Made by a program: the position numbers and the translations under genes. The notes under the pieces are model-generated. The model ran no database searches and had not been told where the DNA came from. It was given only the letters and a program-made list of their open reading frames with translations. This document shows positions 4,312 through 59,320 of a DNA stretch of 64,000 nucleotides, in pieces. The stretch covers positions 57,970,001 through 58,034,000 of the forward strand of contig NC_135819.1 in NCBI RefSeq assembly GCF_964213995.1, in the 5' to 3' direction. Every line of letters starts with the position of its first letter. Position 1 is the first letter of the stretch. Source of the DNA: Mustelus asterias (lineage: Eukaryota).

Positions 4312-4646
4312 CAGTGGTTAGCACTGCTGCTTCACCACCAGGAATCCGAGTTCAATTCTGAGCTTGGGTGACTGTCTCTGTAGAGTTTGCACCTTCGCCC
4401 TGTGTCTGCATGAGTTTCATCCGGGTGTTCCTGTTTCCCATCACAGTCAAAAATGTGCAGGTTAGGTGGATTAGCCATGATTTTAAAAAATTGCCCCTTC
4501 GTATCCCAAGATGTGTAGTTTAGATGGATTAACTGGTAAACGTGTGGGGTTAAGGAAATAGGGCCTGGGCAAAATATTCTGTCAGAGAGTAGGTGCAGTC
4601 TTGATGGGCTGAATGGCCTCCTTCTGCACCATAAGGATTCTATGAT
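4312..4646 (+). mobile_element. HE1-like V-SINE (tRNA head, V domain, CR1-derived tail)
   Basis: cagtggttagcactgctgc head, degenerate B box gagttcaattc, V-domain 'gagtttgcac..ctgtgtctgc', tail 'gatgggctgaatggcctccttctgcac..attctatgatt'. Confidence 0.85.
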
Positions 4647-4844
4647 TTTCTGATTATTTACTTGTAACTCAAACTCACTATAACCTCTTATTACAAATGC
4701 ATCAACCTAGTATTTGCATTTCCAAATACTGAGTCTTTACCAGGTAGAGCACCCGGGGTTTGGTAGGGCCTAATGGTAATGTTACCAGAGGTTGGGACTA
4801 ATGCTTTGGAGACATTAATTCAAGCCCCAGGCTGGGAAATTTAA

Positions 4845-5910
4845 GAACTGAAGAAATAGGAGCTGGAGGAGACCGTACGATTTGTTGAACTTGCTCCGCC
4901 ATTCAATATGATCATGACTAATCTCTGACTTCAGTCCACTTTTTCTCAAGTTCCCATTCCCTTGATTCCCTAGGAAACTAAAAATCTGTCTCTCTCATCT
5001 GTCTACCTTTGAGGTAGAGAATTGCAATGGTTCACAACCCATTTAGTGAAGAAATTTGTCCTCATCTCAGTCTAAATAATTAGCCCTTACTCTGAAACTG
5101 CTAGTGGAAATGATCCCTCGGTGCCTACTCCATCAAGCCCCTTCAGAATCTTACATGTTTCAATATGATTACCTCTCATTCTTTTATACTCCAGAGAATA
5201 TAGACCTAATTTGCTCAGCCTGTCACCATAGCACAATCCCTCTCTTCCCAGGAACCAGTCTAATGAATCTTTGCTCCAATGCAAATATATCCTTTCTTAA
5301 ATATGGAGGCCAAAGCTGCTAGCAGTATTTTAAAAATATTCTGCTCCTCTTATGACCAAAGTGACCTTACATTTCCCCATGCTATATTCCTCCGCCACAT
5401 TGTTGTTCACTCACTTACCTGTCTATAAATCTTTGTAATTATTTTGTGTCCTCTTCACAGCACGTATTCACATCTAACTTTGTATCATCTGGAATCTTAG
5501 ATGGAAAGGCAGAGAATAATATATCCAAGTCATTCACGTAGATTATAAATAGCTGAGGCCCCAGCACTGATCCTTGCAGCAGTCCACTAATCAAGTCTGC
5601 CAACTTGAAAATGGCCCATTTATACCCATTTTTTGCTTCCTGTCTGTTACCTGATCCTCTATCTGTGGTAATATATTATCCTCAACTCAGTACAAGCCTT
5701 TGTCATGTTTTTGTGGCATCCTATTGAATATTGTATATTTACTGGTTCCCCTTTTAGCTACCCCACATCCTCCAAAGCTCTTAACAAATTTGTCAAGTTT
5801 CCCTTTTGTTAAACCATGTTGACTTTGTCTGATCATGCTTTAATTTTCTTAGTGCATTGTTAAGACTTCCTTAATAATAGATTCCAGCATTTTCTGGATG
5901 ACTGATGTGA
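4845..5910 (-). mobile_element. Old CR1 LINE fragment (RT and 3' end)
   Basis: Minus strand gives decayed GSVLGPQLF and LSKLGLYSLE..MRGN..ETCKILKGLD. Many stops and indels. Confidence 0.85.
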
Positions 5911-6559
5911 GGGTGGGATTGTGTTTGGTGCAGACTTGATGGGCCAAATGGCCTCCTTTTGCACTGTCATGATTCTGTGATTTACCTGAATGGACCCCAG
6001 AAATTTCAGTGGTTGATATCAGTGAGCCCTGATAGTCTCACTATTATTTTCCACACACAATCCATGAAAACAATGTGCCCAGTAAATTGATTTTAAAGTT
6101 TTGGTCTTCTCCAACAAATTCCCTTCATGACTTTGGCCCACCTTAGCTTTATGAGTTGCCCAACCTATACATCTCCATGCACACCCTCTACGTCTCTGTC
6201 AAAGTTTTTATTTATGCTTCCAGCTCCATCATTAGTAGCTACTTTTTCAGCTGCTAGGGAGCTTTTTCCTATAAAGTCTCTACATTGTTATCTTCCTCTC
6301 TGCTTTCAAAATGCGACTATGGTACCTGTTTGGTTCATTTGTTGCATTCTCAACTCCAAGTGAGAATGCCACAGGTTCAAGCAGCACGAGGTAAAGTAAT
6401 TAACAATAGTTCATGAAGTTCCATAGACATATATTGCTTGAGGGGCAACACTGCACATCAAATATGGCATAAGGTAAAGTGAATGTCTCCATGAACTAAC
6501 ACATTTGGTACAGGGATTGAAAGAGTGACGATAGCATTATTCTGCATCACACTAGCCAT

Positions 6560-6945
6560 CTAACCAACTGAGTTAACCAAGCCTCCACTTGAGCACAAAA
6601 CAATGGCCGACACTTATGTACATTATTAAAGGAATACTGCATAGTGGGCATTCTTTCCTTCGGGGGTGTTAACCAGAGGACATGTCTGACAATTTGGGGG
6701 ACATAAAGGATCCTATGACACAACTCGAAGATCGAGAACATTATTCTGGTGTCATGATCAACATTTATCCTTTAATGCCACCAAAATGGATTATCTGGTA
6801 TTTTGCTCATTCATTATTTGTGAAACCTTGCTGTACATGAATTGGTTATTTCATTTGCATACATGCAAATAGTGATTACACTTCAAAATTCATTAATTAG
6901 CAGTGGCACACTTTGAAACATCCTGAGATTGTATATTTTCAAGTA
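6560..6945 (+). mobile_element. Decayed Deu-domain SINE
   Basis: 'acttgagcacaaaac..ccgacact', 'gattatctggt..cattatttgtgaaaccttgctgtacatgaattgg', 'gtgattacacttcaaaa..cattaatt'. Confidence 0.6.
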
Positions 6946-7127
6946 ACCTTCTCTATGACATGCTTTTCCCACTCTTCGTTGGGTCTTCATTTTTACTTTC
7001 TCCTCCTAGATAGTATTCATTATTTTTTCCTGGACTCACTTTTATTTTCCTATACTTAACAATGCAGAAAATTGGAAGATTTACTCTATTTGATGTGGAT
7101 TTTAAATGGTGCAGACAACAGAAGAAA

Positions 7128-10100
7128 ATAGAACATAGAAAAGCTACAGCACAAACAGGCCCTTCGGCCCACAAGTTGCGCCGAACATGTCCCTACCTAC
7201 TAGGCTTACCTATAACCCTCTATCTTATTAACTTCCATGAACTTATCCAAAAGTCTCTTAAAAGATCCTATCGAATCCACCTCCACCACGACTACCGGCA
7301 GCCAATTCCACGCACCCACCACCCTCTGAGTGAAAAACTTACCCCTAACATCTCCTTTATACCTACTCCCCAGCACGCTAAACCTGTGACCTCTTGTGGC
7401 AACCATTTCAGCCCTGGGTAAAAGCCTTTGAGAATCCACTCTATCAATACCCCTCAACATCTTATACACCTCTATCAGGTCACCTCTCATCCTTCGCCTC
7501 TCCAAGGAGAAAAGACCTAGCTCTCTCAACCTATCCTCATAAAGCATGCCACCTAATCCAGGCAACATCCTTGTAAATCTCCTCTGCACCCTTTATATGG
7601 CTTCCACATCCTTTCTGTAATGAGGCGACCAGAACTGGGCACAGTACTCCAGGTGGGGTCTGACCAGGGTCCTATACAGCTGCAGCATTATCTCCCGATT
7701 TCTAAACTCAATTCCTCTATTGATGAAGGTCAGTATTCCATACGCCTTCTTAACCACAGCCTCTACCTGCGACGCTGCTTTGAGCGTCCTACGAACCCGG
7801 ACCCCGAGATCCTTCTGATCTTCCACACTGCCAAGCATCTTCCCCTTAATATTATATTCTTTCATCCTATTCGACCTGCCAAAATGAACCACCACACACT
7901 TATCTGGGTTGAAGTCCATCTGACACTTCTCCGCCCAGTCTTGCATCTTATCTATGTCTCGTTGCAACTGCTGACATCCCTCAACACTATCCACAACCCC
8001 TCCAACCTTTGTATCATCAGCAAACTTGCCAACCCATCCCTCTACTTCCTCATCCAGATCATTTATAAAAATCACAAAGAGCAAGGGTCCCAGAACAGAT
8101 CCCTGGGGCACTCCACTGGTGACCGACCTCCATGCTGAAAAAGACCCATCTACAACCACTCTTTGCCTTCTGTGGGCAAGCCAGTTCTGAATCCACAAAG
8201 CAATGTCCCCTTGTATCCCATGCCCCTTCACTTTCTCAATGAGCCTTGCATGGGGCACCTTATCAAACGCCTTGCAGAAATCCATATAAACTACATCTAC
8301 TGCTCTTCCCTCGTCTGTGTCTAGTTACATCTTCAAAAAATTCAATTAGGCTCGTAAAGCATGATCTGCCTTGGACAAAGCCGTGCTGGCTGTTTCTGAC
8401 CATACTATTCCTCTCCAGATGTTCATAAATCCTGCCTCTCAGGATCTTCTCCATCAACTTACCAACCACTGAGGTTAGACTCACCGGTCTATAATTTCCC
8501 GGGCTATCTCTTCTCCCTTTCTTGAATAACGGAACCACATCCGCAATCCTCCAGAACCTCTCCTGTCTCCATTGATGACGCAAAGATCATCGCCAGAGGC
8601 TCAGCAATCTCTTCCCTCGACTCCCACAGTAACCTGGGGTACACCCCATCTGGTCCCGGCGATTTATCTAACTTGATGCTTTTCAAAAGCTCCAACACAT
8701 GCTCTTTCCTAATGTCCACATGCTCAATCTTCTCAGTCCACTGAAAGTCCGCACTGCAACTACCAAGATCCTTTTCCACTGTGAATACTGAAGCAAAGTA
8801 TTCATTGAGTACCTCTGCCATTTCTACCGGTTCTATACAGACTTTCTCACCATCACATTTGATAGGTCCTACTCCTTCACATCTTACCCTCTTGCTCTTA
8901 ACATACTTGTAAAATGCCTTGGGGTTTTCCTTTATCCTGTCTGCCAAGGCCTTCTCATGACTCCTCCTGGCACTTCTAATTTCCCTCTTAAGTTCTTTCC
9001 TACTAGTCGTATACTCTTCTAGATTTCTAACATTACCTAGTTCCCTGAACCTTTTGTAGGCTTTTCTTCTTGACTAAATTCGTTACAGCTTTCGTGCACC
9101 ATGGTTCCTGTGACCTACCATAACTCCCCTGTCTCATTGGAACGTTGCTGTGTAGAGCTCCAGACAAATTTTCCTTGAAATTTTGCCACATTTCTTCTGT
9201 ACATTTCCCTGAGAAAACCTCCTTCCAATTTATGCCTCTAATTTCCTGCCTAATAGCCTCATAATTGCCCTTACTCCAAATAAACACTTTCCTAGCTTGA
9301 CTGATCCTATCTCTCTCCAATGCTAATGTAAAGGAGATAGAGTTATGATCACTATCCCCAAAATGCTCTCCCATTGAGAGATCTGACACCTGCCCAGGTT
9401 CATTCCCTAATACCAAATCAAGTACAGCCTCTCCTCTTGTAGGCTTATCTACATACTGTGTCAGGATGCCCTCCTGAACACACCTAACAAACTACTCCCC
9501 ATCCAAACCCCTTACCCTAGGGATATTCCAAACGATATTTGGGAAATTAAAATCTCCCATCACGACCACTCTGTTATTATCACATCTCTCCAGGATCTGC
9601 TTCCCAATCTGCTCCTCCATGTCCCTGCTACTATTGGGCGGCCTATAGAAAACACTCAGTAAAGTTATTGACCCCTTCCTGTTGCGAATCCCCACCCACA
9701 GAGATTCCGTAGACAATCCCTCTGTGGCATCCATCTTTTCTACAGCCGTGACACTATCCCTGATCAACAGTGCCACTTCCCCACCTCTTTTGCCTTCCGC
9801 CTGTCCCTCCTGAAACATCTGAAACCCGGTACTTGAAGTATCCAGTCCTGTCCCTGAGATAACCAAGTCTCTGTAATGGCCACCACATCACGCTTCCAAG
9901 TAGTGATCCACGCTCTAAACTCATCCATTTTGTTCACTCCACTCCTTGCGTTAAAATATACACATCTCAACTCTTCGGTCTGAGCGCTCCCGTTCTCCTC
10001 CCTCTCACACTGTCTACAAGCCCCTTTTATTTTTAAGCTAACCTCCTCTCTCCCAGTCACCTCATTTTGATTCCCACCCCCCAACCATTCTAGTTTAAAC

Positions 10101-10541
10101 ACTCCCCAGTAGCCTTAGCAAACCTTCCCGCCAGGATATTGGTCCCCCTGGGATTTAAGTGAAACCCGTCCTTTTTGTACAGGTCGCACCTGCCCCTAAA
10201 GAGGTCCCAATAATCCAGGAACCTGAATCCCTGACCCCTGCTCCAATCCCTCAGCCACGCATTTATCCTCCACCTTATTTCGTTCCTTCCCTCACTCTCT
10301 CGTGGCACAGGCAGCAATCCCGAGATTCCTAACTTTGCGTTCCTTCTTCTTAACTCCCTATCTAACTTCCTAAACTCTCTTTTCATAACCCCTTCCCCTT
10401 TCCTGCCTATCTCAATGGTACCAGTATGCACCACGACCTCTGGCTCCTCTCCCTCCCACTTCAGGATTTCTTGGATACGGTCAGAAATATCCCTGATCCC
10501 GGCACCAGGGAGGCAAACCACCATCCGCGTTTCTCGACTTC
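7128..10541 (-). mobile_element. CR1 LINE with part of ORF1 (SGNH esterase) and full-length but frameshifted ORF2 (APE + RT)
   Basis: ORF1 DGFHLNPRG; APE YFNARS, DVVAITETWL, MGDFNFP, GDSDH; RT GVPQGSVLGP, KFADD; tail atagaacatagaa. Same subfamily as 30278-34098. Confidence 0.95.
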
Positions 10542-10814
10542 CTGAAGATAATAACATTGTTGCTGAAAGGAATTCCAAAATCTCAATAGAAGAGGAATCG
10601 TGGGAGACATGATTCAGATGGAACTCAATGTTACTGAAGGAAATTAATAATTGGGAATAGTTATGGAATTATTGGAAATTAAAGTGCATAAGGGTAAAGT
10701 GGAAACTTGTAAAATTTTCTGTTCAAATACTTGAGGGAAGAGTTCTTCCAAAAACGTCTTCGGTCAAGAGAATCAATTTCAGCAGTGACCACATACTGTT
10801 CTTTTATTACTCAT

Positions 10815-27356: not shown

Positions 27357-27477
27357 GTAAGAAGTCTCACAACACCAGGTTAAAGTCCTGGTGTTGTCTC
27401 ACAAGGACTTTAACCTGGTGTTGTGAGACTTCTTACTGTGCTTACCCCAGTCCAACGCCGGCATCTCCACATCATGA
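27357..27477 (+). mobile_element. Short Penelope-like element insertion: inverted terminal copy plus 3' tail, with 12-bp TSD
   Basis: Perfect 32-bp inverted repeat (27357-27388 / 27405-27436), then a tail 'tgtgcttaccccagtccaacgccggcatctccacatc'. TSD TTACCTAGATCC at 27345-27356 and 27478-27489. The arm sequence matches 53337-53362. Confidence 0.8.
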
Positions 27478-28454
27478 TTACCTAGATCCACCAGTGTTAT
27501 TTTTAAGTAACAGAAGCAGTTGCAGCAACTGTATGTTTACCTGTTCTCAGATTCTGAATTTGACTCTTCTTCAGCCTGCCTGTACTGCGCCATTGGAATC
27601 ATTATCAACTGAGTTCTGATGGATCTATGTCCATTTTATATGAATTCAACCAATTTCAGCCTCACCATGACTTTGATTTCCAATCTTAGTACCAGTCTTA
27701 GTTTCCTTAGAAGTTGGGATGGCCGGATTTCTGTCTCAGTATCCCCTTTTAATTAGGGTCGGTCTCAAAACGTGCAAGCTTTGAAAATACGGATTACATC
27801 AGTGTTTTATTGCTATGACAACATTGTGTCACAGTAGAATGTCTTTCCAGAATTAATCACCCGTTCTTGTTCTGTCTTACCTCATTAAATCAATGGCACA
27901 TGCATGGTGACAGTTTATTTTATTCTTTGCAGCAACCTGTAACAGTTTCACATTAATCCCAACTGCATTGAAATTCCTGCTATGCAAGAATCTGCTTAGC
28001 ATTAGAAGCTTTATTTTGAAATAAGCTATTTTTCATAATATGCGAGGGAGCTGACATGCTGCATGCCATGCTGTGTCCTTCATTTCACTTCCTGCTCGAA
28101 CAGTAACATGGCAAACTAGTTATAAATTGTCAGTGCAGTTGTATCACAAATTTTACATGATGGTGGAAGCAGTTTCCCAAAGACCTTTCCAATATGAACT
28201 GAGGATTTTAAATAATTGTACTTCATGCATTATGAATTGTATTATGACTGAATTGTAAGTCAAAAGTGCTGGCTGCAGTGCTTGTGAAAATAATATTTTT
28301 TGATGGAATATTTTATTGTATAATTTAATGCAGATAGCACAATAAGAATTGGGAACAAAAGTTTTATACGACAAAGTTATGTGTCTTTTATGTCTATGTT
28401 TATATATTTACACATATTTAATAATGTTCTTAAGTTCTCTGCTCGCAGGCAGGT

Positions 28455-30277: not shown

Positions 30278-33200
30278 AGGTGCATATCTGCGCTAGGTGT
30301 ATTGAGCTGCAGCTCCTAAGGGACCGAGTTGGGGAACTGGAGCTGCAGCTCGAGGACATTCGTCTGGTCAGGGAAAACAAGGAGGTGATAGATAGGAGTT
30401 ATAGGCAGGTGGTAACACTGGGGCCACAAGGATCAGGCGAGTGGGTCACGGTTAGGAAAGGGAAGAATCAGGTGGTTCAGAGCACCCCAGTGGTTGTGCC
30501 CCTTAAGAATAAGTACTCTTGTTTGAGTACTGTTGGGGGGGACAGCCCACTAGGGGGAAGCAGCAGTGGCCGTGCCTTCTGTGCGGAGTCCAGCCCTGTA
30601 GCACAAAAGGGTAAGGAAAGGAGTAGGAAGGCAGTGGTGATTGGGGACTCCACAGTGAGGGGGTCAGACAGGCGTTTCTGTGGAAGAAGTCGAGAAACGC
30701 GGATGGTGGTTTGCCTCCCTGGAGCCGGGATCAGGGATGTTTCCGACAGGGTCCAATAAATCCTTAAGTGGGAGGGAGAGGAGCCAGAGGTCGTGTTGCA
30801 TACTGGTACCGCCGACGTAGGCAGGAAAGGGGAAGGGGTTATGAAAAGAGAATATAGGAAGTTAGGTAGGGAGTTAAGTAAAAGGAACGCTAAGGTAGTA
30901 ATCTCAGGATTGCTACCTATGTCACGAGACAGTGAGGGAAGGAACGGAATAAGGTGGAGGATGAATGAGTGGCTGAGGGATTGGAGCAGGGGGCAGGGAT
31001 TTAGGTTCCTGGGTCATTGGGACCTCTTTAGGGGCAGTGCGACCTGTACAAAAAGGATGGGTTCCACTTAAATCCCAGGGGGACCAATATTCTGGCGGGA
31101 AGGTTTGCTAAGGTTACTGGGGACGGTTTAAACTAGAATAGTTAGGGGGTGGGAATCAACATGTGGTGACTGGGAGAGAGAGGAGGTTAGAGTAAAAATA
31201 AGAGGGGCTGGTCGGCAGTGAGAGGGAGGATAGGCAGGTGAAGGGGAGCGCTCAGACCGAAGGGTATAGTGAACAAAATGGATGAGCTTAGAGCGTGGAT
31301 CGCTGCTTGGAAGTGTGATGTGGTGGCCATGACAGAGACTTGGTTGTCTCAGGGACAGGACTGGGTACTTCAAGTGCCGGGTTTCAGATGTTTCAGGAGG
31401 GACAGGAAAGGAGGCAAAAGAGGTGGGGGAGTGGCACTGTTGATCAGGGATAGTGTCACGGCTGTAGAAAAGATGGATGCCACGGAAGGATTGTCTACGG
31501 AATCTCTGTGGGTGGAGGTTAGGAACAGGAAGGGGTCGGTAACTTTACTATGTGTTTTCTATAGGCCGCCCAAAAGTATCAGAGATGTGGAGGAGCAGAT
31601 TGGGAAGCAGATTCTGGAGAGATGTGATAATAACAGAGTGATCGTGATGGGAGATTTTAATTTCCCAAATATTGATTGGAATATCTGTAGGGTAAGGGGT
31701 TTAGATGGAGAGGAGTTTGTTAGGTGTGTTCAGGAGAGCTTCCTGACACAGTATGTGGATAAGCCTACAAGAGGAGAGGCTGTGCTTGATTTGATATTAG
31801 GGAATGAACCTGGGCAGGTGTCAGATCTCTCAGTGGGAGAGCATTTTGGGGATAGTAATCATAACTCTTTCTCCTTTACACTAGCATTGGAGAGAGATAG
31901 GATCAGCCGAGCTAGGAAAGTGTTTATCTGGAGTAAGGGCAACAACGATGCTATTAGGCAGGAAATTAGAGGCATAAATTGGAAGGAGGTTTCCTCGGGG
32001 AAATGTACGGAAGAAATGTGGCAAATTTTCAAGGAAAATTTGTCTGGAGCTCTGCACGGCAATGTTCCGGTGCGACAGGGGAGTTATGGTAGGTTACAGG
32101 AACCGTGGTGCACGAAAGCTGTAACGGATTTAGTCAGGAAGAAAAGAAAAGCCTACAAAAGGTTCAGGGAACTAGGTAATGTTAGAAATCTAGAAGAGTA
32201 TACGACCAGTAGGAAGGAACTAAAGAGGGAAATTAGAAGAGCCAGGAGGGGACATGAGAAGGCCTTGGCAGACAGGATAAAGGAAAACCCCAAGGCATTC
32301 TACAAGTATGTGAAGAGCAAGAGGATAAGATGTGAAGGAGTAGGACCTATCTCATGTGACGGTGGGAAAGTCTGTATTGAACCGGTAGAAATGGCAGAGG
32401 TACTCAATGAATACTTTGCTTCAGTATTCACAGTGGAAAAGGATCTTGGTAGTTGCAGTGCAGACTTTCAGTGGACTGAGAAGATTGAGCATGTGGGCAT
32501 TAGGAAAGAGGATGTGTTGGAGCTGTTGAAAAGCATCAAGTTAGATAAATCGCCGGGACCGGATGGGGTGTACCCCAGGTTACTGTGGGAGTCGAGGTAA
32601 GAGATTGCTGATCCTCTGGCGATGATCTTGCGTCATCAATGGAGATGGGAGAGGTTCCGGAGGATTGGAGGATGGCGGATGTGGTTCCGTTATTCAAGAA
32701 AGGGAGAAGAGATAGCCCAGGAAATTATAGACCGGTGAGTCTAACCTCAGTGGTTGGTAAGTTGATGGAGAAGATTCTGAGAGGCAGGATTTATGGTCAT
32801 TTGGAAAGGAATAGTATGATCAGAAATAGCCAGCATGGCTTTGTCCGAGGCAGATCATGCCTTACGAGTCTGATTGAGTTTTTTGAAGATGTGGCTAAAC
32901 ACTTAGACAGGGAAAAGCGGTAGATGTAGTTTATATGGATTTCAATAAGGTGTTTGATAAGGTGCCCCACGCAAGGCTTATGGAGAAAGTGAAGGGGCCT
33001 GGGATACAAGGGGACGTTGCTTTGTGGATTCAGAACTGGCTTGCCCACAGAAGGCAAAGAGTCGTTGTAGATGGGTCTTTTTCAGAGTGGAGGTCGGTCA
33101 CCAGTGGGGTGCCCCAGGGATCTGTTCTGGGACCCTTGCTCTTTGTGATTTTTATAAATGACCTGGATGAGGAGGTGGAAGGATGGGTTGGCAAGTTTGC

Positions 33201-34098
33201 TGATGACACCAAGGTTGGTGGTGTTGTGGATAGTGTAGAGGGATGTCAGCAGTTGCAACGAGACATAGATAAGATGCAAGACTGGGCGGAGAAGTGTCAG
33301 ATGGACTTCAACCCAGATAACTGTGTGGTGGTTCATTTTGGCAGGTCGAATAGGATGGAAGAATATAATATTAAGGGTAAGACACTTGACAGTGTGGAAG
33401 AACAGAGGGATCTTGGGGTCCGGGTTCATAGGACGCTCAAAGCGGTGTCGCAGGTAGAGGCTGTGGTTAAGAAGGCGTATGGAATACTGGCCTTCATCAA
33501 TAGAGGAATTGAGTTTAGAAATCAGGAGATAATGCTGCAGCTGTATAGGACCCTGGTCAGACTCCACCTGGAGTACTGTGCCCAGTTCTGGTCGCCTCAT
33601 TACAGAAAGGATGTGGAAGCCATAGAACGGGTGCAGAGGAGATTTACGAGGATGTTGCCGGGATTAAGTGGTATGCCTTATGAGGATAGGTTGAGAGAGC
33701 TAGGTCTATTCTCCTTGGAGAGGCAAAGGATGAGAGGTGACCTGATGGAGGTGTATAGGCTTTTGAGAGGTATTGATAGAGTGGATTCTCAGAGGCTTTT
33801 ACCCAGGGCTGAAATGGTTGTCACGAGAGGCCACAGGTTTAGGGTGCTGGGGAGTAGGTATAGAGGAGATGTTAGGGGTAAGTTTTTCACTCGGAGGGTG
33901 GTGGGTGCGTGGAATCGGCTACCGGTAGTGGTGGTGGAAGCGGATTCGATTGAGTCTTTTAAGAGACTTTTGGATAGGTTCATGGAGGTTAGTAAGATAG
34001 AGGGTTATAGATGAGCCTAGAAGGTAAGGAAATTGTTCGGTGCAATTTGTGGGCCGAAGGGCCTGTTTGTGCTGTAGCTTTTCTACGTTCTATGTTCT
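30278..34098 (+). mobile_element. Near full-length CR1 LINE: ORF1 (Zn-finger/leucine zipper + SGNH esterase) and ORF2 (APE + RT), several disablements
   Basis: HICARC..LRDRVGELELQL, VVIGDSTVRG; APE ETWL, MGDFNFP; RT KFADD; tail tagcttttctacgttctatgttct. A ~29-bp deletion at ~31262 removes the LRCVYFNARS segment seen in the sister copy. Confidence 0.95.
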
Positions 34099-35828: not shown

Positions 35829-38800
35829 AGAGTGCAGTTAAACACATGGATGCAGGGATGGTGTAGGAGAGAGGGTTTCAGCTATGTGGATAATTGGAAC
35901 ACTTTCTGGGGAAGGTGGGACCAGTACCAACAGGACGGGGTGCACCTGAACCAGAAGGGCACCAATATCCTGGGAGGGAAATTTGCTACGGCTCTTCGGG
36001 GGGATTTCAACTAATTTGTCAGGGGGATGGGAAAAGGAGTTGTAGTCCAGAGGTCAGTGAGTGTAGTCAGGTACTGGGAAGGGTATCATGGTCAAAGGTG
36101 GGTACCAGCAGACAAGAAGGTGGGTTGAAGTGTGTCTACTTCAAAGCAAGGAGCATCCGAAATAAGGTAGGTGAACTTGGGGCATGGATTGGCACTTGGG
36201 ACTACGATGTTGTGGCCATTACGGAGACATGGGTAGAACAGGGACAGGAATGGTTGTTGGAAGTTCCGGGGTATAGATGTTTCAGTAAGTGTAGGGTAGC
36301 TGGTAAAAGAGGTGGAGGAGTGGCACTGTTAATCAAGGAGAGTGTAACGGCTGCCGAAAGGCATTTCGAAGGGGATCTGCCTACAGAGGTAATATGGGCT
36401 GAGGTTAGGAATGGGAAAGGAGCGGTCACGTTGTTAGGAGTTTACTATAGGCCCCCAAATAGTAATAGAGATGTGGAGCAAGAAATTGCTAAGCAGATTA
36501 TGGATAGGTGTGGAGGTCACAGGGTAGTTGTCATGGGGGACTTTAACCTTCCAAATATTGATTGGAACCTTTATAGGTTGAATAGTTCGGATGGGGCAGT
36601 TTTTGTGCAGTGTGTGCAAGAGGGGTTCCTGACACAATATGTGGATAAGCCGACAAGAGGTGGGGCCACATTGGATTTGGTAATGGGAAATGAGCCGGGC
36701 CAAGTGTTGGATTTGGTTGTGGGAGAGCACTTTGGAGATGGTGACCACAATTCGGTGTCTTTTGTTATTGCAATGGAGAGGGAGAGGGCCATATGGCAGG
36801 GCATAGTTTACAATTGGGGGAGAGGTAATTATGATGCAATCAGGCGGGAATTAGGAAGCATAGGATGGGAACAAAAATTGTCAGGCAAAGGCACTAATGA
36901 TAAGTGGAACTTTTTCAAGGAACAAATACTGCGTGTCCTTGATAGGTATGTCCCTGCCAGGCCGAGAGGAAATGGCCGAGTGAGGGAACCATGGTTCACA
37001 AAAGAGGTGGAATGTCTTGTCAAGAGGAAGAAGGAAGCGTATGTTAGGTTGAGAAAACAAGGTTCAGTTGGCTTGATGGAGGGTTACAAGTTAGCAAGAA
37101 ATTAGCTGAAAACGGGGCTTAGGAGAGCTAGGAGGGGGCATGAGAAATCCTTGGCAGGTCGGATCAAGGAAAACCCCAAGGCTTTTTACTCTTATGTGAG
37201 GAATAAAAGAATGACCAGGGTGAGGCTGGGGCCAGTCAAGGACGGCAGTGGGAATTTGTGCATGGAGTCAGAAGAGATAGGAGAGGTGATGAATGAATAC
37301 TTTTCTTCGGTGTTCACCAAGGAGAGGGGCCATGTTTTTGAGGAAGAGATGGTGTCACAGGCTGATAGGCTGGAGGAAGTAGATGTTCGGAGGGAAGATG
37401 TACTAGCAATTTTGAATAAACTGAAAGTTGATAAGTCCCCTGGGCCTGATGAAATATATCCTAGGATTCTTTGGGAGGCAAGGGATGAGATAGCAGAGCC
37501 TTTGGCATTGATCTTTGCGTCCTCACTGTCCACGGGGGTGGTGCCAGAGGACTGGAGAGTGGCGAATGTGGTTCCTCTGTTTAAGAAAGGGAATAGAAAT
37601 GACCCTGGTAATTATAGGCCGGTTAGTCTTACTTCGGTGGTCGGTAAGTTGATGGAAAAGGTCCTTCGGGATAGGATTTACGACCATTTAGAAAGATGCA
37701 GCTTAATCCGGGTTAGTCAGCACGGATTTGTGAAGGGCAAGTCTTGCCTCACAAATTTGATCGAATTTTTTGAGGAGGTAACTAAGTGTGTCGATGAAGG
37801 TAGTGCAGTTGATGTCATATACATGGATTTTAGTAAGGCGTTTGATAAAGTCCCCCACGGTCGGCTTATGAAGAAAGCAAGGATGTGTGGGATAGAGGGA
37901 AGTTTGGCCGATTGGATAGGTAACTGGCTATCTAACAGAAGACAGAGGGTGGTGATGGATGGAAAATTTTCGGACTGGAAACCGGTTACCAGTGGAGTGC
38001 CACAGGGATCAGTGCTTGGTCCTCTGCTATTTGTAATTTTTATAAATGACTTGGAGGAGGGGGCTGAAGGGTGGATCAGTAAATTGGCTGATGACACCAA
38101 GATTGGTGGAGTAGTGGATGAGGTGGAGGGCTGTTGTAGGCTGCAAAGAGATATAGATGGGATGAAGAGCTGGGCTGAAAAATGGCAAATGGAGTTTAAC
38201 CCTGACAAATGCAAGGTGATTCATTTTGGTAGGACTAATTTAAATGTGGATTTCAGGGTCAAAGGTAGGGTTCTGAAGAATGTGGAGGAACAGAGAGATC
38301 TTGGGGTTCATATCCATAGATCTCTGAAGTTGCCACTCAAGTGAATAGAGCCGTGAAGAAGGCCTATAGTGTATTGGCGTTCATTAACAGGGGGTTGGAG
38401 TTTCAGAGCCGTGGGGTTATGCTGCAACTGTACAGGACCTTGGTGAGACCACATTTGGAATATTGTGTGCAGTTCTGGTCACCTCACTATAAGAAGGATG
38501 TGGAGACACTGGAAAGAGTGCAAAGGAGATTTACCAGGATGCTGCCTGGTTTGGAGGGTAGGTCTTATGAGGAAAGGTTGAGGGAACTTGGGCTTTTCTC
38601 TTTGGAGCGGAGGAGGTTGAGAGGAGACTTGATAGAGGTTTATAAGATGATGAGGGGGATAGATAGAGTGAACGTTCAAAGACTATTTCCTCAGGTGAAT
38701 GGAGCGGTAACTAGGGGGCATAACTATAGGGTGCATGGTGGGAGATATAGGAAGGATGTCCGAGGTAGGTTTTTTACTCAGAGAGTGGTTGGGGTGTGGA

Positions 38801-49492: not shown

Positions 49493-51239
49493 ATAATGGG
49501 AGAAAGTGAATTTAAAAGGAAAGATTATATGATAGAACAGAGAAAAAAAAGGCTAAATTCACAAAAATATTATTTCCTTGGTGATAATTTCCTCAAATGC
49601 AAAACTTCTGAGCATTACTGTTTAGCTGAACATTTAAGCTGCAAATGCTGTAATACCTTTAACATTTGAAGCAAGTTTTCAAAGTTTTGGACAGACCAAT
49701 TTGAAAGGATGAACATTTTTCTTCCAGCCTTTAGCTTCACAATCCTACAAGTCCTACTCTGGACATCAACACAGGCTACTTTAGAACAGCAACTAATCAG
49801 GAGGCATCCCCTAATCTCATTATTGGAAAATATGGATTCAGCACTACTGTTGTTAGGTCCAGATGTCACAACAACATCAAAGAATAAATACTTGCCCAGT
49901 TGGAATCCTGGGTATCTTTGCATTCTCAGTATTATTAATTATTCATAGAACCCCCTGTAATCATTTTTGAATATATTTCTCTGCTTCCTTCTGATATAAA
50001 GATTAGCAGTTATCCTGTTTTGCATTGAAATGGTGGAAGTAAACTGACTTACCATTGCCTTAATGTTCTTTAACTATTTGTCTGGGCACACTCCCAGATG
50101 AATTAATTTCCTTTAAAAAAATTGAGATTCATGTGATTTAAAAGTCAAGATGGCAGCAACAGCATTTTCAACAAAACAGATGATTGAAATTTATAGATTT
50201 TAGCGAAACCCTTTTTTCAGGTGAACTTAATAAAGGATAGATTACTTTTCATTTTTAAAACGCTTTGTCTTAGCTCATGAAACAATTTAAAATACCACCA
50301 CATGTACTTCTGTTCTGATCGTGTTGCACTAATTCTACAGATTGTCATTTCAGTGCTGAAATGCATTTTATATTAGAAGTCAAGAGAGCATTTGTGAGCA
50401 TGTGGGTGTGATGGAAGACTTATTCTGTTGGTATTTTTTTAAGAGCTGGTAAATTAATGGCTTCCTGAAAACAATGAAGAAAGTATAGGAAACAGAAGCA
50501 TGGAGTATAAAACAACTGCTATATACTGTGGTTAGTTAACAGCTTCACAGCAGTATATTATGCCACTGATCAGACCTATTTCTGAGAGACTTGAATTTCA
50601 TTCTCTTTGTGGGTTGTGCAGCTTTCCAAAAGAATTAACGATTGGGACAAGTGTGTGTTTCAGATCCACAATCTCTAGGAGATGGTTTAAATTTGTTCTT
50701 GTTGATTTTCTTTCACACTCTTCAAGCTCTTTCAGCAGTATTAGACTTATCCTTATTTCTTTTAAGAGTGAATGGATACTACATAAATTGACAAAATGTT
50801 GAAGTAATGCAGTAAAATAACAAAATTTATGTATTTATGAATGATTGTGCTGAGCATTCTTGTATTATATTTCAGATTATATGTATTTTTAAAGATGCAT
50901 TTAATTGAGGTCCTTGAAGTAACTACTAACAGGCAAGATTTTGGATTTTGCTGTACCAATGGAATAACAGCAGGGCTGTGCTCAGACGCTCTATTACAGT
51001 ATTGGCTAAGACCAAAAATTGTCTGTGTGAAGTGTGGATGTTGCAGGTGCAAGCTGCATTTTACTTGCAGATGGGGAAATATTTAGTTAACACATAATTA
51101 TCTGAATGTGATTTATGAAATTAAATTCCATGCCAGTTGTAGAGCAGGTGGTCACGTGAACGCTGGGTACAACCCTCCATTGCCTCTATGCAGTCAGATT
51201 GCTTGCCAGATGTACAGTGTTGTATGAACTGCAATTTCC

Positions 51240-52690
51240 TCCAATTAAACAAGCCATCATCTTTATCCTCACCACGAACTCTCTACCCTTGCCTTTTGGA
51301 TCCACCCTCCACCCAGCCACAAACTCGGGTTGAATTAGACTGTTTGCCCTAAGCTGAGATTCCAACCCACATTCTCTCCATCACAAAGACTGCCTACTTG
51401 CACATTTCCTGCCCCTGCCTCAGCCCAATTGCTGCTGGAATTCAATCATACCGTTGTAACCTCCTGATTCAACTTTTCAAGTGATGTCATTGCCCCCATT
51501 CTATCCTTCATAAACTTCCACAAAATGCTTTCTCTTTATCCTATCAGAACACCAAAAACTGCTGTCAGATCATTACTATCTTGTTGACCTCTTGTGGTTT
51601 TCTGTTCCCAATGCCTCCAATTTAAAATTCTCATCCTTGAGTTTTAATCCCTTCATGGCGTCACCCCATAAATAAGGCTGTAACCTCCTCAGCCCTACTC
51701 CTCCCCATTTTATCAATTCTAGCATCAAACTTTCCATTTTATCAATTCTAGCATTGTATTCCCCCTTTGCCTGATCAAAGACAATCATGTCTTCAGAGAT
51801 CTAAGGGTACACGTTCATAGCTCCTTGAAAGTGGAGTCACAGGTGGACAGAGTGGTGAAGAAGGCATTCGGCATGCTTGGTTTCATCGGTCAGAACATTG
51901 AATACAGGAGTTGGGACGTCTTGTTGAAGTTATACAAGACGTTGGTAAGGCCACACTTGGAATACTGTGTGCAATTCTGGTCACCCTATTATAGAAAGGA
52001 TATTATTAAACTAGAAAGAGTGCAGAAAAGATTTACTAGGATGCTACCGGGACTTGATGGATTGAGTTATAAGGAGAGGCTGAATAGACTGGGACTTTTT
52101 TCACTGGAGCGTAAGAGGCTGAGGGGTGACCTAATAGAGGTCTATAAAATAATGAGGGGCATAGACAAGGTAGATAGTCAACATCTTTTCCCAAAGGTAG
52201 GGGTGTCTAAAACTAGAGGGCATAGGTTTAAGGTGAGAGGGGAGAGATACAAAAGTGTCCAGAGGGTGGTGAGTGTCTGGAACAAGCTGCCAGAGGTGGT
52301 AGTAGTAGAGGTGGGTACAATTTTATCTTTTAAAAAGCATTTAGATAGTTAAATGGGTACGATGGGTATAGAGGGATATGGGCCAAATGCGGGCAATTGG
52401 GATTAGCTTAGCGGTTTTTAAAAAAAGGGCGGCATGGACAAGTTGGGCCGAAGGGCCTGTTTTCATGCTGCAAACCTCTATGACTCTATCAGCCCATGTT
52501 CTGAAATTCTCCTTTTAACTTCTCCATCATCTTCCTCCTCAAAAATCACACCTTTGATCAAGCTTTTGATTACTTGTCCTGATACCTCCTCTTTTGCTCA
52601 GCATTTATTTCTGTCTAATTGCACCTCAGTAAAGCACCTTGAAATTTTTTTCCTGTTAAAAGCACCTTGTAACTACAAGCTGTTGTTGTT
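51240..52690 (+). mobile_element. Old L2-like LINE 3' region split by a CR1
   Basis: 'ctccatcacaaagactgcctac', 'aatttaaaattctcatcctt..tttaatcccttcatggc', and an L2-type end 'gtaaagcaccttg..aaagcaccttgtaactacaagctgttgttg'. Confidence 0.6.
51795..52490 (+). mobile_element. Young 5'-truncated CR1
   Basis: VRPHLEYCVQFWSP, LFSLERKRLRGDLIEVYK; tail ctctatgactctat. A small deletion near 52260 removes the usual GNFFT segment. Confidence 0.93.
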
Positions 52691-53284
52691 TCTATGCCCC
52701 AGGCATAGAGATGATGAATAAGAATAAATTTGATTTATATAAATAAATATGAAGAAGATTAAAGTGAAAAAATTGAATATGACATTCATGACTAATGTAA
52801 TAGAACTGTATATGTAACCAAGCAATGGAACACATCCACATTTTTCATTCTGGGATTTGTACTGAGGCATTTAACTGCTGTATTATAACAGTGAAACGAT
52901 GGAAAATTAGGAATGGGCTGCACATGAATTAATGCTGCCAACAGAGTGATTTCTTCCATAATACTTTCTGGGATGAATTCATCAAAATCTTGAAGTATAT
53001 TCAAGAAGTAACTTTGTACATTATTTCAGCCCTAAATAAAATGTATGATTATGAAGCCTGCCCTAAATAAAATGTATGATTATGTCCTGCTCTATCTCCA
53101 ATCATGTACTGCAGCACTCTTTTCACATCTAATAATATATTCAACAAGACAAATAACCAAATTATCCATCTTGGCTATTGGGCCAATTGCACCCACACTT
53201 CATTGATTTTTTTTTTTAAATTAGCATTATAAACAATACATGACTTAATCAAAGAGCCATGCTCTCTCGGTATTGCCCTCTGGG

Positions 53285-53457
53285 CCACCTGATGCGCTCC
53301 GAAAGCTTATGGTATTTGCTACCAAATAAACCTGTTGGACTTTAACCTGGTGTTGTGAGACTTTCTACCTGATGAAGGAGCAGTGCTCCGAAAGCTAGTG
53401 GCTTGTGCTACCAAATAAACCTCTTGGACTTTAACCTGTTTTTGTGAGACTTCTTAC
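53285..53457 (+). repeat. Two tandem Penelope-like terminal repeat units, each with a hammerhead motif
   Basis: Units 53287-53366 and 53367-53457: acctgatg..gctccgaaagct..gctaccaaataaacct.ttggactttaacctg..ttgtgagactt. Confidence 0.8.
53365..53401 (+). ncRNA. Minimal type I hammerhead ribozyme motif
   Basis: Stem I CTAC/GTGG, core CTGATGA (53369-75) + A, stem II GGAGC-agt-GCTCC, GAAA (53390-93), palindromic AGCT in place of stem III, predicted cleavage after CTA (A53397). Confidence 0.78.
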
Positions 53458-53770
53458 GGGGAATCTAGAACCAGGGGACACAGTCTCAGGATATGGGGTA
53501 GACCATTTAGGGCTGAGCTGAGGAAAAACTTCTTCAATCGAAGAATGAACCTGCGAAATCCTCTACCACAGAAGGCTGTGGAGACCAACTCACTGAACAT
53601 ATTCAAGGAAGAGAGAGATTTTTTTGAGATTTTATGGCATTAAGGGGTATGGGTAGAAAGGTGGGATATAGCATTGAGATTGAGGATTGGCCATGATCAT
53701 AGTGAACAGTGAAAAAGGCTCGAAGGACTGAAAGGCCTACTCCTGCTCTTAGTTTCTATGTTTCTACGTT
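53458..53770 (+). mobile_element. CR1 3' fragment
   Basis: GESRTRGHSLRI.GRPFR..LRKNFF; tail tttctatgtttcta. Confidence 0.8.
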
Positions 53771-54699
53771 TTATGTTTCCATGCTTTGGTCCATGATTAT
53801 ACTTGCCAAGGTAAGACAGTGGTCTGTTATTGCCTTCTAAACGTTCTGGCCAATAGACTCTCCTTCTCTTACGAACTGCCATAGGCATGTTGGAAGGGGT
53901 TACAGGTTGATAATCAACCCGAGTGGCCATGTTCTGGATATACCTTCTGTTGCCATCAAATCCTGGACTGAAATGTGAATTCTGGTCCAAAGGTTGGTAT
54001 GATACCAATGTGCCACAAAAAGATCACTATTTTACGTTAATTCTTATTAGAGACGAGTTTCCTTCTGAGGCCAATACTAAAAATACCGTGTCTTCATATC
54101 ATCCAGGACTTTTTGCAGTTGATATATATCAAAGCTCCAGTTTTTGTACCAATGCTTTCGTGTCTCATCAACAGCAAATAATTTTAATGCATTTACTTAT
54201 TTCAATTTCTGATGAGATAATTATGTTATTATCGATATATTCGCTGCTGGTGCATTTTCCTTTGGAGTGCTGGATTGCAGAATCATCCTTTCTGTATTGC
54301 TCAATATCCCTAGTATTTTAGTGTTGATTATAAACAATTAATGTTCAATGGGATGAAAATGTAGCAGTCTTTCAAATTGGCTTATATTACATAGTTTCCT
54401 AATGAGTTTCTAATATTGTTGATGCTTTCATTGCATTTGATTATTTTCTGGCTCTCCTTTTGATCCAGTACCCTGAAAGTCAGATCAAGGTGGTTATTTC
54501 ATCTTTTAAGTAGAATGTTCTATAATAATTGTTTGTTTGCTTGCTTGCTCGCAGATTTTGAGATTATCTACCTGACGGATGGTTTTTCCCCACTGGTTTA
54601 TTAAATGGAGAGAAGGACTTGTAGTTATATTGAGTTTTGCTGACTTACTATAGAACTGTTGTAATTGTTACACAGACAAATAGAATAATGATGTTGCCT

Positions 54700-54985
54700 A
54701 CATAAAGGCCTCACAGCATGAAATCCAATTGTGGTGATGCTCTTTGAGGAATATGGGTGGCAATATTGTTTTGATTACTGAGTTTTTGCATTCACCTGAA
54801 CCACTAGAACAAGTGAAGAGAGCTGCTGTTTAATAGTTTAATATCTCATCTGGTGAAAAATGCCTCCTAAAATGGAACACTCCCTTCGTAGTGTACTAGT
54901 TACAAACTCAAGTCAGAGCATGGGGTTTGACCTCACAGCTGTCAGATTCAGATGGAGGGTGCTTCCAATTGCGTCAAACTTCCAT
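54700..54985 (-). mobile_element. Decayed Deu-domain SINE
   Basis: Reverse-complement blocks 'tttaatatctcatct..gaaaaatgcctcc..acactcccttcgtagtgtact', 'ctcaagtc..ggggtttgacctcaca'. Another copy is at ~46780-47005. Confidence 0.5.
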
Positions 54986-55614
54986 TTAGTTGCCAAAATG
55001 AAAACATTGAACCATGTAAAAAAAAATTAAACCAGTCGCCACAGATTTTCTTAAGTCGGGCATGGATTTGGAGCATATTGTTTAATGGGGAATTGAATTA
55101 TAGATGGAAAAGTCTGGCTTTCCAGCCAAGTCTCTTTTGAATTCCTGATATTGATATCATTAACAAGTCAGAAATGAGTTATTATGGGTTTATGCTTGTC
55201 TACCACTGAGATAGAGAAGTAGCTTTTAGCTCTCATGGAGTGTTACAGTATTACACATGATGAACTTTGTTGTTCTTTTAAAGAATGCTCTTTCTCTCTT
55301 TGCATTACCATTCTGCCTCATTGCTATCCTCCTTCAACCAACAGTAAAATTTTGTGTGCATCTGTTAACCTCCATGATATCATGACGTTATTGAGTGTGA
55401 CATTTGCCTCAGACTCGCAGTTGAGAAACCACAATGTAAGGGTTGATATTCTAGTTACCAATTTCTAGTTTATTTTGTGTTCCTCACTTATACATTCTGC
55501 CTACTTGATCCTTTCTTGTCTAATCTGCCTATTTATGTCTACATTTAATACTTAATGACAACCAATGTCAACATCCAGGAATGCAAACAACAGACCCACA
55601 AATTATACAAGAGA

Positions 55615-55955
55615 TATCATAAAATTCCTATAGTGCAGAAGGAGGCCATTCAGCCCATTGAGTCTACACCAACCGCTCCAACATCTTATCCAGGCCCACC
55701 TGGCACCCTATCCCCACGTATTTACCCCACTAATTCCCCTAGCCTACACATCTTTGGATACTAAGGGGCAGTTTAGCATGACCAGTTCACCTAACCTGCA
55801 CACGTTTGGACTGTGGGAGGAAACCGGAGCACCTGGAGGAAACCCACACAGACACGGGGAGAACTTGCAAGCTCCACACAGATAGTCACCCATGACAGGA
55901 ATCAAACCCAAGCCCCTGGCGCTGTGAGGTAGCAGTGCTAATCACTGTGCCACCC
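55615..55955 (-). mobile_element. HE1-like V-SINE
   Basis: Reverse-complement head ggtggcacagtgattagcactgc, V domain and CR1-type tail. Confidence 0.9.
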
Positions 55956-56364
55956 CATATGTATATATGGACAATAATTTGAAGACATTTTGCCAATGCA
56001 GGTCAGGAAGAATAAGATGTAAACACATCAGAAGAGAAAAGAGACATGGAGGCAGATTGATTGGGTGAATGAGAAAGTAGACCTAAAGGACATTGGTCAT
56101 CAAAAAGGTAACAATTCAACCATTTTGCGCATTAGACTTCAAAGAAATGAACAGCATTGGCATCAAACATTGGTTATCAAAGATCAGGAAAAGAAGCCTA
56201 AAAAGCAGTGTTGAAATTATATTCAGATAGAAAAAAAACTGAAGACTGAAAGACAAAAACATGAGAGTCAGCAAATTAGAATAAATATAGTTCAAAATTT
56301 ACACAAGTATGTGAAGAGTTGTAATGCTTAATACTTTCGTTTCCTCATGTATCTACATGTTATT

Positions 56365-59320
56365 GGGCCAGAGTGTGACTTGGTTGGCTGATGGCTACCT
56401 CCCCCCACATGACAGGTAGCCAAATAAGAGCTTCTATGGAAAACACCAGCGAAGCTCGACCAAAATTTTCCACTCCATAGTTAGACCCTCTGTGGTGGGC
56501 AAAATATATCTGGGGATGGAGGCAAAGAAGGGGGCGAGGGTGACCAGTTCTTCTGGTTCTTCTGGTGGCAGAGAAGGGGGCAAGGGTGACTCGCCACACC
56601 AAGGATCTACCATTGATGAGTCTCCTACCTACACATGAGTGGGAGGCAATGCAAGGCAAGGCAGCCATTGTCCAGAGAACTCATCCACCATATATGCCAC
56701 ATGCTTCGAGGAGAGCTGACACCACATGGGTTTGGAGGCTTCCCCCTGCCAGTGTCCTGAAAATGATGGAAGCATTTTATTCCTTTGCCTCTTGATCTTT
56801 CCAGGGATCAGCTGGGGCTCTGTGCAACCTATCTCAGTTGGCAATACATTGCTGCATTGATGCGCGTTATCACACACGAGGCTGAAGTTCAGGAAATAAA
56901 GGCTTTTATTTGCTGTAACAAGGCAGCTACTAATTATATACACGATCCCAGACTGAGGGGTCCCAGACAGAGCAGAGACCTTTATACCTCTCCCAGGAGG
57001 CGGAGCCCGACTGGGATGTACCACAATACTATAATACAAAGGTGTAACAACCCAACCCTAACCCCAACAGCAACAAGTAGAACAACCCATCCCTAACCCC
57101 AACAGCAACATATATACATACTTGTAGTACTGGCCAGACCCTGGCTCAGTACTATCTAGTGGGAACCAACGATGGTTCACCACATGCATAAAGGAGGTTA
57201 CGATGCCCTCTGCAGGAAAGCCAATCATTATGTAAATAGTCTTCTGAAGGAATCAGACTCAGTGATTAATGATTCGCAGCTGTCTCACGCTATCCAAAGA
57301 TGCAGAGTACAATTGTCTGCACCCATGTGGCTTTCCGGGTTCCCTGGTAGCAGGTCTTAATTTTCATCAACCATAAGGACTTCCATTCCATCAGTGTGCA
57401 GTTGGTGTGTGACCATTGCAAGCAACCCTAAGAATGTGTGCATGGTTCCCAGGGAGCTGCCATGACTCCTACATCCTCAGTCAATTCCAGGTTCCAGGGA
57501 TCTTTGAGGGGCCAGATGTCTACAGGGATGGTTATACGGGAATAAGGGCTACCCACTTAAACACTGGCTAATTACTCCGGTGCATCGTCCTCAGACTCCC
57601 GCCGAGGAAACAACACAGCTCATGCCACTGCACACTCCCTCATAGGACAGACCACAAGACCTTTGAAAATGCAATTCAGATGCCTGGACTGCTCAGATGG
57701 CTCTCTGCAATACATACCAAAGAGGGTGGCATCATATGAATGTTCATCTAGTATGAGATAGGCTGAATCTTGGGGTAAAAGGATTACAAAAATCCAAACC
57801 AAAATGCTTCCATCTGACCCTAACATTCATATACCCATGGAATAGTTTTCCAACAGTGCGACATATTTGGTGATAGAGGACCTGTGACCCTGAGGTAACA
57901 TCAAAACTTCTTAACCTTACCATAACATCTTGGTCCAGCCCCAGTAGCTGCAGAAGAGGTGGAGGTAATCTGCTGACTGCTACATCCTGATGCCTTTGAT
58001 GACCTTGGTCCGAGTGGCCCGAGCCCTGGAGGGGCCTGGACCCATAAAGGTCTCATGGTTGTGCTGCTGGAGTTGTTGTGGACACAGGCAGAGGGAACTC
58101 TGAATGGTTGTGCACCCTTGGACTTCTTGAGTAGAGGCCCCTGGAAGTTCAGGCTGACGCTCATCCAGAGGGCCCCTGTCTAAGTCCTACAGGATAAGGG
58201 ACACCTGAAGGGAGTTCAAGATGCTTCATCCTCATGTGACCTACATTCTGATGGTGGCCACCAATGTGTGTGACCATGGAGTGAAGGCCTGCTGGACGAT
58301 GGTCTCCATGATGGTCAACAATCTTCCCATGGAGGCCTTGAGGCACCTGCATGTCAGAGCCCGACAGCAGACAAATATGGAGTGACTCCCTCTCCATGCA
58401 CTGTAGTCTGCTGAGAGACTCGCGAAGCTGTACCCAATGTCCTACTACCTGCCTTTACATCTCCACCAGTGAGGTGGCAGCCACTAGCCCTCCCAAGTGT
58501 TTGAGACCTGGACTGTCCTTGCCTCCAACTGATGCGGGGACTTGTCAGTGAGGTGTTCCCCAGAAAGTGGCCCCGAGTCTAAACTTGAAATATGCCCCAT
58601 CAAAGTGTGTATCTCTGTGCTAGTGCAGGTTTCAGGTGAACGATGTGATGATTATTCCTGAGCACCCTCATCCTCAGATATGCTCCAGAGTCTCAATTGC
58701 TGCTTAGCTGGCTAGCAGACCGCACGCAGTCTCCTAGTGCCTATAAAATACAAACTGACAGTTTCAGTGGAGAAGCGGAAGCTAATTCAGAGTACATTGC
58801 ATTCACTGTGAACTGATGGAGCTGAGATCCATTCTATGTTGTTGGGTGAGGCCAAGCTCAGGCACTATCCCTGTTTTCACTGGCAAGCAGTGCTGCAGTT
58901 GAGGCTGAAGATCACTGCTATCTCTCCCCCAATCTGGGCTTTTTCACGTATGTTGCACGAGTTTGGCCTGTATGGAGAGAAAAGAAAGACATGGTCAGAG
59001 GGGATGGAGCAGAGGTTGGATAAAATACATGTGCCCTATGTATGGTGTGTCCTACCCAGAGGGATGGAGAATGGAGTTTGAGCAACAAGACAGATGGGAT
59101 GGTGGTGTTCTGAAAGTCTTGTTTAGAGAGTAAGTATTGCTATGTGTCCTCCACGACTGAATGTGTGAGATCCACGAAGAGAGTAGCCATTTGAGTATTT
59201 GGTGCGATGCCAGGATGAGAGTTTGATAGTAGGGGGAGCTAAAGGAGGACTTACCCTGGCGGAGCAGATGAGATCATTCATTCACTTCTTGTACTCCGTG
59301 GCACTTGTTCAGATGCCCTA
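56365..59320. mobile_element. Decayed autonomous-type PIF/Harbinger transposon: HARBI1-like DDE transposase (+) convergent with Myb/SANT-like ORF (-)
   Basis: Plus strand: SFQGSAGALCNLSQ..HCCI|[59 protein letters not shown]. Minus strand at 59250-59310: MNDLICSAR followed by GTAAGT. Left boundary uncertain. Confidence 0.85.
56858..57184 (-). mobile_element. Solo LTR, 327 bp, inserted in the Harbinger transposase
   Basis: TG...CA termini, perfect 5-bp TSD TGCAT (56853-57 / 57185-89), TATAAA and AATAAA on the minus strand, CpGs retained. Removing it restores CCIKEV. Confidence 0.88.

Follow-up and report, generated by a model that had tools for sequence, protein, structure and literature searches.

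A hammerhead tandem in Mustelus asterias, likely formed by nested insertion of two Penelope-like 3′ stubs

The stretch of Mustelus asterias DNA that was analysed (64,000 nucleotides; hereafter the window) holds two short units at positions 53285-53457 that had been predicted to be tandem minimal hammerheads of a Penelope-like or retrozyme-like repeat. The hammerhead is real and its kind is known, and the Penelope stubs that carry it are likely to be the product of an ordinary nested insertion. Judged by their sequence, the two units are 3′ stubs from a Penelope-like retroelement whose motifs are of Neptune type. A younger 70-bp stub of subfamily B1 (53295-53364) was probably inserted in the hammerhead core of an older stub of subfamily A, duplicating 10 bp. 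The observations behind this reading are the family identity, the subfamily difference, a flanking repeat of 8 or 10 bp, the family's habit of making target-site duplications (TSDs) and the uniqueness of the junction. The labels A, B1, B2, C and D are our own names for five subfamilies. The features of the locus, in window coordinates, are as follows.

53280..53282, + strand: CTG, the modal target motif of the family, 5 nt before the duplicated target (from the family TSD survey)
53285..53294, + strand: putative left copy of the TSD, CCACCTGATG, and putative original 5′ end of the older A stub (repeat of 53365-74)
53295..53364, + strand: putative younger insert, a 5′-truncated B1 3′ stub ending at the first tail site (from subfamily identity)
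53325-30, + strand: AATAAA of unit 1 (sequence)
53365..53374, + strand: putative right copy of the TSD, CTACCTGATG, which also supplies the complete hammerhead with its core and the 5′ strand of stem I (sequence)
53365..53457, + strand: putative older A-type 3′ stub, with hammerhead, AATAAA and tail to the first end site, CTTCTTAC (nearest class A)
53365-68 and 53398-401, + strand: stem I of the unit 2 hammerhead, CTAC and GTGG (sequence)
53369-75, + strand: core CTGATGA of unit 2, followed by an extra A (sequence)
53377-89, + strand: stem II of unit 2 (sequence)
53390-93, + strand: GAAA of unit 2 (sequence)
53393-96, + strand: palindromic AGCT of unit 2 (sequence)
After A53397, + strand: predicted cleavage site of unit 2, the monomer being without stem III (sequence)
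53414-19, + strand: AATAAA of unit 2 (sequence)
53458..53600, + strand: piece of a different dispersed repeat, outside the element (many other loci match at 68-81%)

A repeat search of the window confirmed the two direct repeats of the original prediction, pairing 53296-53368 with 53385-53457 at a spacing of 89 bp (73 nt, 86% identity). The complete core ascribed to unit 2 was also found: by sequence pattern, 53365-53401 is a minimal type I hammerhead, for which activity and a cut after A53397 are predicted. An AATAAA does lie just downstream in each unit. Measured against the minimal hammerhead (CUGANGA...GAAA...UH with stems I and II), unit 2 has the full set of elements and unit 1 does not. 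The window has a single match to the core pattern, and 100 shuffles gave none. Alignment of unit 1 to unit 2 leaves a 9-nt gap in unit 1, and the stem I closing pair of unit 1 is a C-A mismatch, which is absent from the earlier reading. No match was returned by an Rfam scan of 50000-57000 at E ≤ 1, the TRF list of the window is without the hammerhead tandem, and folding z-scores against shuffles marked no segment as significant; the hammerhead was not the predicted minimum fold. A contig from one DNA run covers 52900-53321 with zero differences (the run may be the assembly's own source); because of this exact match, an assembly slip at the unit-1 junction is unlikely. The repeat piece at 53458-53600 we take to be a CR1/L2-type LINE 3′ region.

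The Penelope identity suggested at the outset was upheld: the units carry the pLTR hammerhead and tail of a Penelope-like element (PLE). Exact matches in the 3.68 Gb genome number 171,007 for a 29-mer of the tail, 21,478 and 24,832 (46,310 together) for two core patterns, and 148,753 for a 12-mer spanning stem II and GAAAGCT, against 106 for a control. Among the 30 best copies of unit 2, homology continues upstream and enters a frame that carries GIY-YIG and RT motifs, as it does in copies of subfamilies A and B1. Twelve loci picked for long open frames (L105-L116) were read. Two of these, L106 and L108, are complete pLTR-ORF-pLTR elements, with the hammerheads of L108 spaced 2,994 bp; these complete copies belong to subfamily C, not to A or B1. 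Their single ORF runs for 883 aa from an ATG at the tail end and contains DKG, GTAMG and YIDD motifs, a CX4CxxC linker and a two-cysteine GIY-YIG. RVT_1 was recognized by Pfam (E=4e-10). Pfam made no GIY-YIG call in the 883-aa copy, where the motif was seen by pattern; homologues carry PF01541. Pfam searches with three partial frames and a PDB sequence search with the ORF gave no match.

The closest four homologues of the ORF are shark proteins (84-94%). The linker CHSNLCKTC and YLIRCKKGCPEAWYIG with a downstream His agree with the CX2-5CxxC linker and CCHH GIY-YIG described for Neptune and shared with Nematis (PMC8557442). By the criteria of that work the family is of Neptune or Nematis type, as assigned from motifs alone; in vertebrates, only Neptune and Poseidon were found in the study of bioRxiv 10.64898/2026.07.22.740005. 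Searches of the literature on shark and elasmobranch Penelope elements, Neptune targets and shark repeats (a scope without Repbase and subscription journals) returned no description of the family. Between distantly related sharks the identity of the ORF region is 84-86%, falling to ~45% in turtles. Many open frames of 800-990 aa in subfamily C (L105-L116) are nearly identical, which suggests that this subfamily has been active recently.

The family's 3′ ends and TSDs were surveyed in 99 copies on contig C1, taken from the first 100 tail matches listed for its plus strand. The 3′ end lay at +14 to +27 in 54 copies, at +50 to +62 in 34, between these in six and elsewhere in five; copies end at two tail positions, not at the hammerhead cut. 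These positions fit the two RT start sites and tail described in PMC11167929. An inverted partner was present within 1,250 bp upstream of 45/99 copies and a direct partner within the same distance of eight, none nearer than 212 bp. The family displays 5′ truncation, an inverted 5′ copy, a 30-40-bp tail and TSDs, hallmarks of EN+ PLEs, for which heavy 5′ truncation, partial tandems, an inverted 5′ copy, an optional 30-40-bp tail and TSDs are described (PMC8557442). Scrambled short pieces are common at its 5′ junctions.

Both ends were available for 93 copies, and 57 of these have a TSD of 7-16 bp (shuffled pairs: mean 3.4, maximum 11). An independent search gave TSDs of at least 10 bp in 53/99 copies, with a mode of 12-13 bp; six of the 53 were of 10 bp. 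CTG begins 5 nt before the TSD in 19/53 (background 2.3%) and 3-5 nt before it in 30/53 (background 6.8%), the position window having been set after examples had been looked at. Two kinds of 5′-end pile-up were considered and neither was evident, one at the hammerhead cut (copying of cleaved RNA) and one just upstream of the core (a SINE-like unit); 22/99 extents were of 60 nt or less and these were spread out.

The two units of the window were compared with the 80 of the 99 sampled copies that could be parsed. Over 68 nt, unit 1 differs by 0 edits from 10 of 18 B1 copies and by eight edits from unit 2, the nearest sampled class of which is A (four edits); the best other genomic copies of unit 2 are 97% identical over 91 nt. 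The supposition that the units are copies of one monomer was therefore not borne out, as they belong to different subfamilies, and for this reason there is no intact dimer ancestor from which a repaired version could be built. Mean pairwise divergence over the 68 nt is 1.33 edits among the 18 B1 copies against 3.37 among 13 A copies, from which B1 looks the younger. Both units stop at the first tail site, the end used by 54/99 sampled copies.

The 10 nt before the gap of unit 1 are not B1-like; they repeat the sequence just after its tail. This flanking repeat, ACCTGATG (53285-94 and 53365-74), is exact over 8 nt and has one mismatch over 10 nt. Segment 53285-53294 is what the earlier reading took as the core of unit 1, with a 9-nt deletion following it. 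The gap does align as described, but it is most likely the left copy of a TSD joined to a 5′-truncated insert. The insert would comprise the 3′ arm of stem II, GAAAGCTT, the stem I 3′ strand ATGG, AATAAA and tail, and would have no catalytic core of its own. In the genome, a B1 3′ part preceded by the 5′ end of unit 1 is matched 17 times, and one with the normal B1 5′ end 8,938 times. In the proposed sequence of events, the GIY-YIG endonuclease of the element would cut 5 nt after CTG, the RT would start at the first internal initiation site of the B1 RNA tail, copy 70 nt and halt inside stem II, and repair of the cut would leave the 10-bp duplication.

The putative TSD is short for the family (10 bp, mode 12-13) and differs at one position. 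The duplicated 8-10 nt may be element-derived rather than target-derived, because they are also the hammerhead's own sequence. No TSD was seen around the older A stub; it would have one if the left flank belonged to the same LINE piece as the downstream flank, but this was unsupported. No empty-site allele was seen in contigs of four runs, which break in the repeat. Two of the 23 short tandems that were tested also arose by nested insertion, L161 (a B1 unit followed by an A unit, again at 89-nt spacing) and L049; each has a clean 12-bp TSD and CTG at -5.

An unlikely alternative to nested insertion is a single template-switching event, in which A-type RNA was copied from the first initiation site through the hammerhead, then B1 and then A again, with a jump at a TAC/CTAC microhomology to the same site of the B1 RNA and the last 10 nt of A type. 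This would fit the stop of both stubs at the first tail site and the short microhomology at the junction, and a one-event origin keeps some probability because scrambled 5′ junctions are frequent in the family. Yet it requires three template segments, and two subfamilies that seem to differ in age would have to be expressed together. The composite lacks a TSD around it, CTG stands exactly at -5 of the inner repeat, and those mixed tandems whose origin could be resolved had arisen by nested insertion. It is far less probable that one stub was duplicated locally in tandem, then lost 9 nt in a deletion associated with the hairpin and underwent divergence or gene conversion. The 9-nt gap does have a 1-nt G microhomology and removes one hairpin arm, and short duplications within one subfamily are present at other loci, but the identity of unit 1 with the majority form of the other subfamily, eight edits from unit 2, largely refutes this origin, which would require a B1 donor to have converted precisely the part after the gap.

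The ribozyme itself was examined across the family, whose five subfamilies differ at positions where a hammerhead tolerates change. The stem I closing pair is C-G in A (9/12) and U-A in B1/B2 (28/28); it is C-G in C, and subfamily D pairs poorly at this position (C-A in 2/4). The C-type stem II variants GCTCC and GCCTC both keep pairing. N7 may be C, T or A, and none of the 67 parsed copies has G at position 17. These pairing changes are a few subfamily-level events, not independent counts; we infer that the hammerhead motif has been kept by selection in the family. Minimal PLE hammerheads are reported to need a partner or the help of protein (PMC4209133, PMC11167929; reviews PMC6765202, PMC6155905), and by analogy the family ribozyme is likely to act as the usual dimer-dependent or protein-assisted pLTR ribozyme.

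A forced double hammerhead was calculated at -19.8 kcal/mol, 9.4 kcal/mol above the minimum of -29.2 kcal/mol. In a double hammerhead each core cleaves the site of the other copy. For a double hammerhead in cis at the window, the A53397 site would need the core that is absent from unit 1, and the core of unit 2 would face the site of unit 1 across the C-A mismatch. As neither centre would be complete, the pair is predicted not to release a unit RNA. The unit may form a dimer in trans with another transcript.

The original prediction further proposed a retrozyme of ~90-nt units. A derivation from pLTRs has been proposed for animal retrozymes, one chondrichthyan is reported to have them (bioRxiv 10.64898/2026.07.22.740005), and the present family may be among the chondrichthyan retrozymes of that study. 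Like metazoan non-LTR retrozymes, the tandem (L034) has a type I hammerhead within a non-coding repeat that is related to pLTRs and arranged head to tail (PMC7229834; bioRxiv 10.64898/2026.07.22.740005). It differs from them in having a single-copy junction and two subfamilies, and it falls short of two complete units because it has only one complete ribozyme (bioRxiv 10.64898/2026.07.22.740005); nor is its unit common to dispersed or arrayed copies. The junction pattern of the window has one match in the 3.68 Gb genome. Motif pairs 74-104 nt apart numbered 72, against 93 expected under random placement, and arrays are counted several times in the 72. From this list 43 family loci were examined, three matches to another repeat being dropped and the family locus C1800 left out. 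In 11 of the 43, two complete hammerheads lie within 104 nt of each other, and the junction differs from locus to locus. No junction was shared among the tandem loci compared at 74-104 nt, the closest pair (74 and 76 nt) differing by four edits. At 105-312 nt, 534 pairs were found against 400-507 expected (assuming an 80-90% share of the exact motif). The first 100 listed spacings were flat (KS p=0.59), with no modal length. The survey covered 74-312 nt with exact patterns, which miss decayed copies.

The census thus yielded no family of ~90-nt units, and the retrozyme reading fails by the test that the original prediction had set for it. That the window tandem is a crippled copy of a non-autonomous retrozyme spreading by ~90-nt circular RNA is the least probable of the origins considered, since, for all its tandem layout, its one complete hammerhead and the 11 loci with two, its junction is unique without a dispersed family of this unit, short tandems are not above chance, its units come from different subfamilies and its 89 nt fall short of the 150-450 bp that repeats of this kind typically span (PMC7229834).

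Single-locus minisatellites made from hammerhead fragments were also seen at L060, L151, L044, L160, L154, L164, L043 and L037, with periods of 26, 32, 37, 39, 39, 45, 46 and 51 nt, respectively; most are without a complete ribozyme.

Nested insertion also recurs within the pLTR of the element itself, at one site that precedes the hammerhead core by about 30 nt. A junction that joins the tail ATG to the pLTR, counted because a 158-nt spacing had been seen repeatedly, has 39 matches in the genome, of which 30 loci were read (L287-L316); the junction was chosen after being seen, and the count covers this one position. At least 14 of these 30 loci are nested insertions at the one site with a 12-15-bp TSD, against an expectation of fewer than one under uniform insertion (hand estimate). 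Nine have complete hammerheads on both sides, 158-163 nt apart. The pieces inserted come from several subfamilies and so represent independent events. Insertion into existing copies is known in kind (PMC6765202, PMC11167929), and the CTG preference and ATG microhomology account for part of the excess. A 158-nt array at L264-L266 (G000:C1:15480236-15480721) has four motifs and three complete hammerheads and is built on a junction nearly identical to this one; by its sequence it would fit the operational definition of an active retrozyme. A propagating 158-nt mini-element was considered and rejected, the upstream pieces at the shared junction being from several subfamilies and having different 5′ ends.

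It is conceivable, though we think it rather doubtful, that self-targeted nested insertion turns Penelope ends into retrozymes, with pairs excising RNAs that circularize and are copied again, and that the window tandem is a failed off-site product of this process. If the ~160-nt pairs gave circles, there would be a concrete route from Penelope ends to retrozymes.

The family can be placed beside known systems. Set against the metazoan PLE pLTR hammerheads of PMC4209133, stem II has 5-6 bp in this family, and its 46,310 core matches far exceed the 4,000-9,000 given for coelacanth and Xenopus; shark copies are not mentioned in the available text of that paper. Like the EN+ Neptune-type PLEs of PMC8557442, the family has a single ORF with RT, a C-terminal two-Cys GIY-YIG and a CX4CxxC linker. 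A preference for CTG at -5 was not found in the literature on Neptune target choice; for rotifers, TSDs of 8-10 bp have been described (PMC3846280). The Poseidon element PAc of Anolis likewise has a pLTR hammerhead and two 3′ end sites ~37 nt apart that correspond to two internal RT starts, and cutting of its own pLTR has been proposed (PMC11167929). PAc differs in its ATT or AT-rich targets, in contrast to CTG here, and in an ORF that starts inside the hammerhead (PMC11167929), whereas the ATG of this family lies 130 nt downstream of the core.

In genomes with more than 100,000 Penelope ends, nested insertion alone makes 'tandem hammerheads' that tandem-repeat pipelines could count as retrozymes, and caution is warranted. 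The family is also a natural data set: it offers in-genome support for two internal RT start sites, a TSD of ~12-13 bp, a preference for CTG at the target and repeated cutting of the element's own pLTR, and its near-intact ORFs could serve biochemical work.

Several minor observations were made in and around the window. A second stub of the same family, consisting of inverted and direct tail pieces without a hammerhead, lies at 27357-27482 and is flanked by a 12-bp TSD (TTACCTAGATCC) with CTG at -5. In the downstream flank of L312, a family copy ends at almost the same position of the LINE-like repeat as the older stub of the window (53458-53500). A perfect 25-nt direct repeat, 31 bp apart, at 53029-53084, 200 bp upstream of the tandem, is possibly a small local duplication. 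LINE RT and endonuclease were the main matches among the 17 of 84 long window frames that were scanned, and long frames of this type lie at 1507-3270, 7593-8324, 31242-34014 and 35894-38344. A GDSL/esterase-like frame is present at 10090-10668; domains of this kind occur in some LINE ORF1 proteins.
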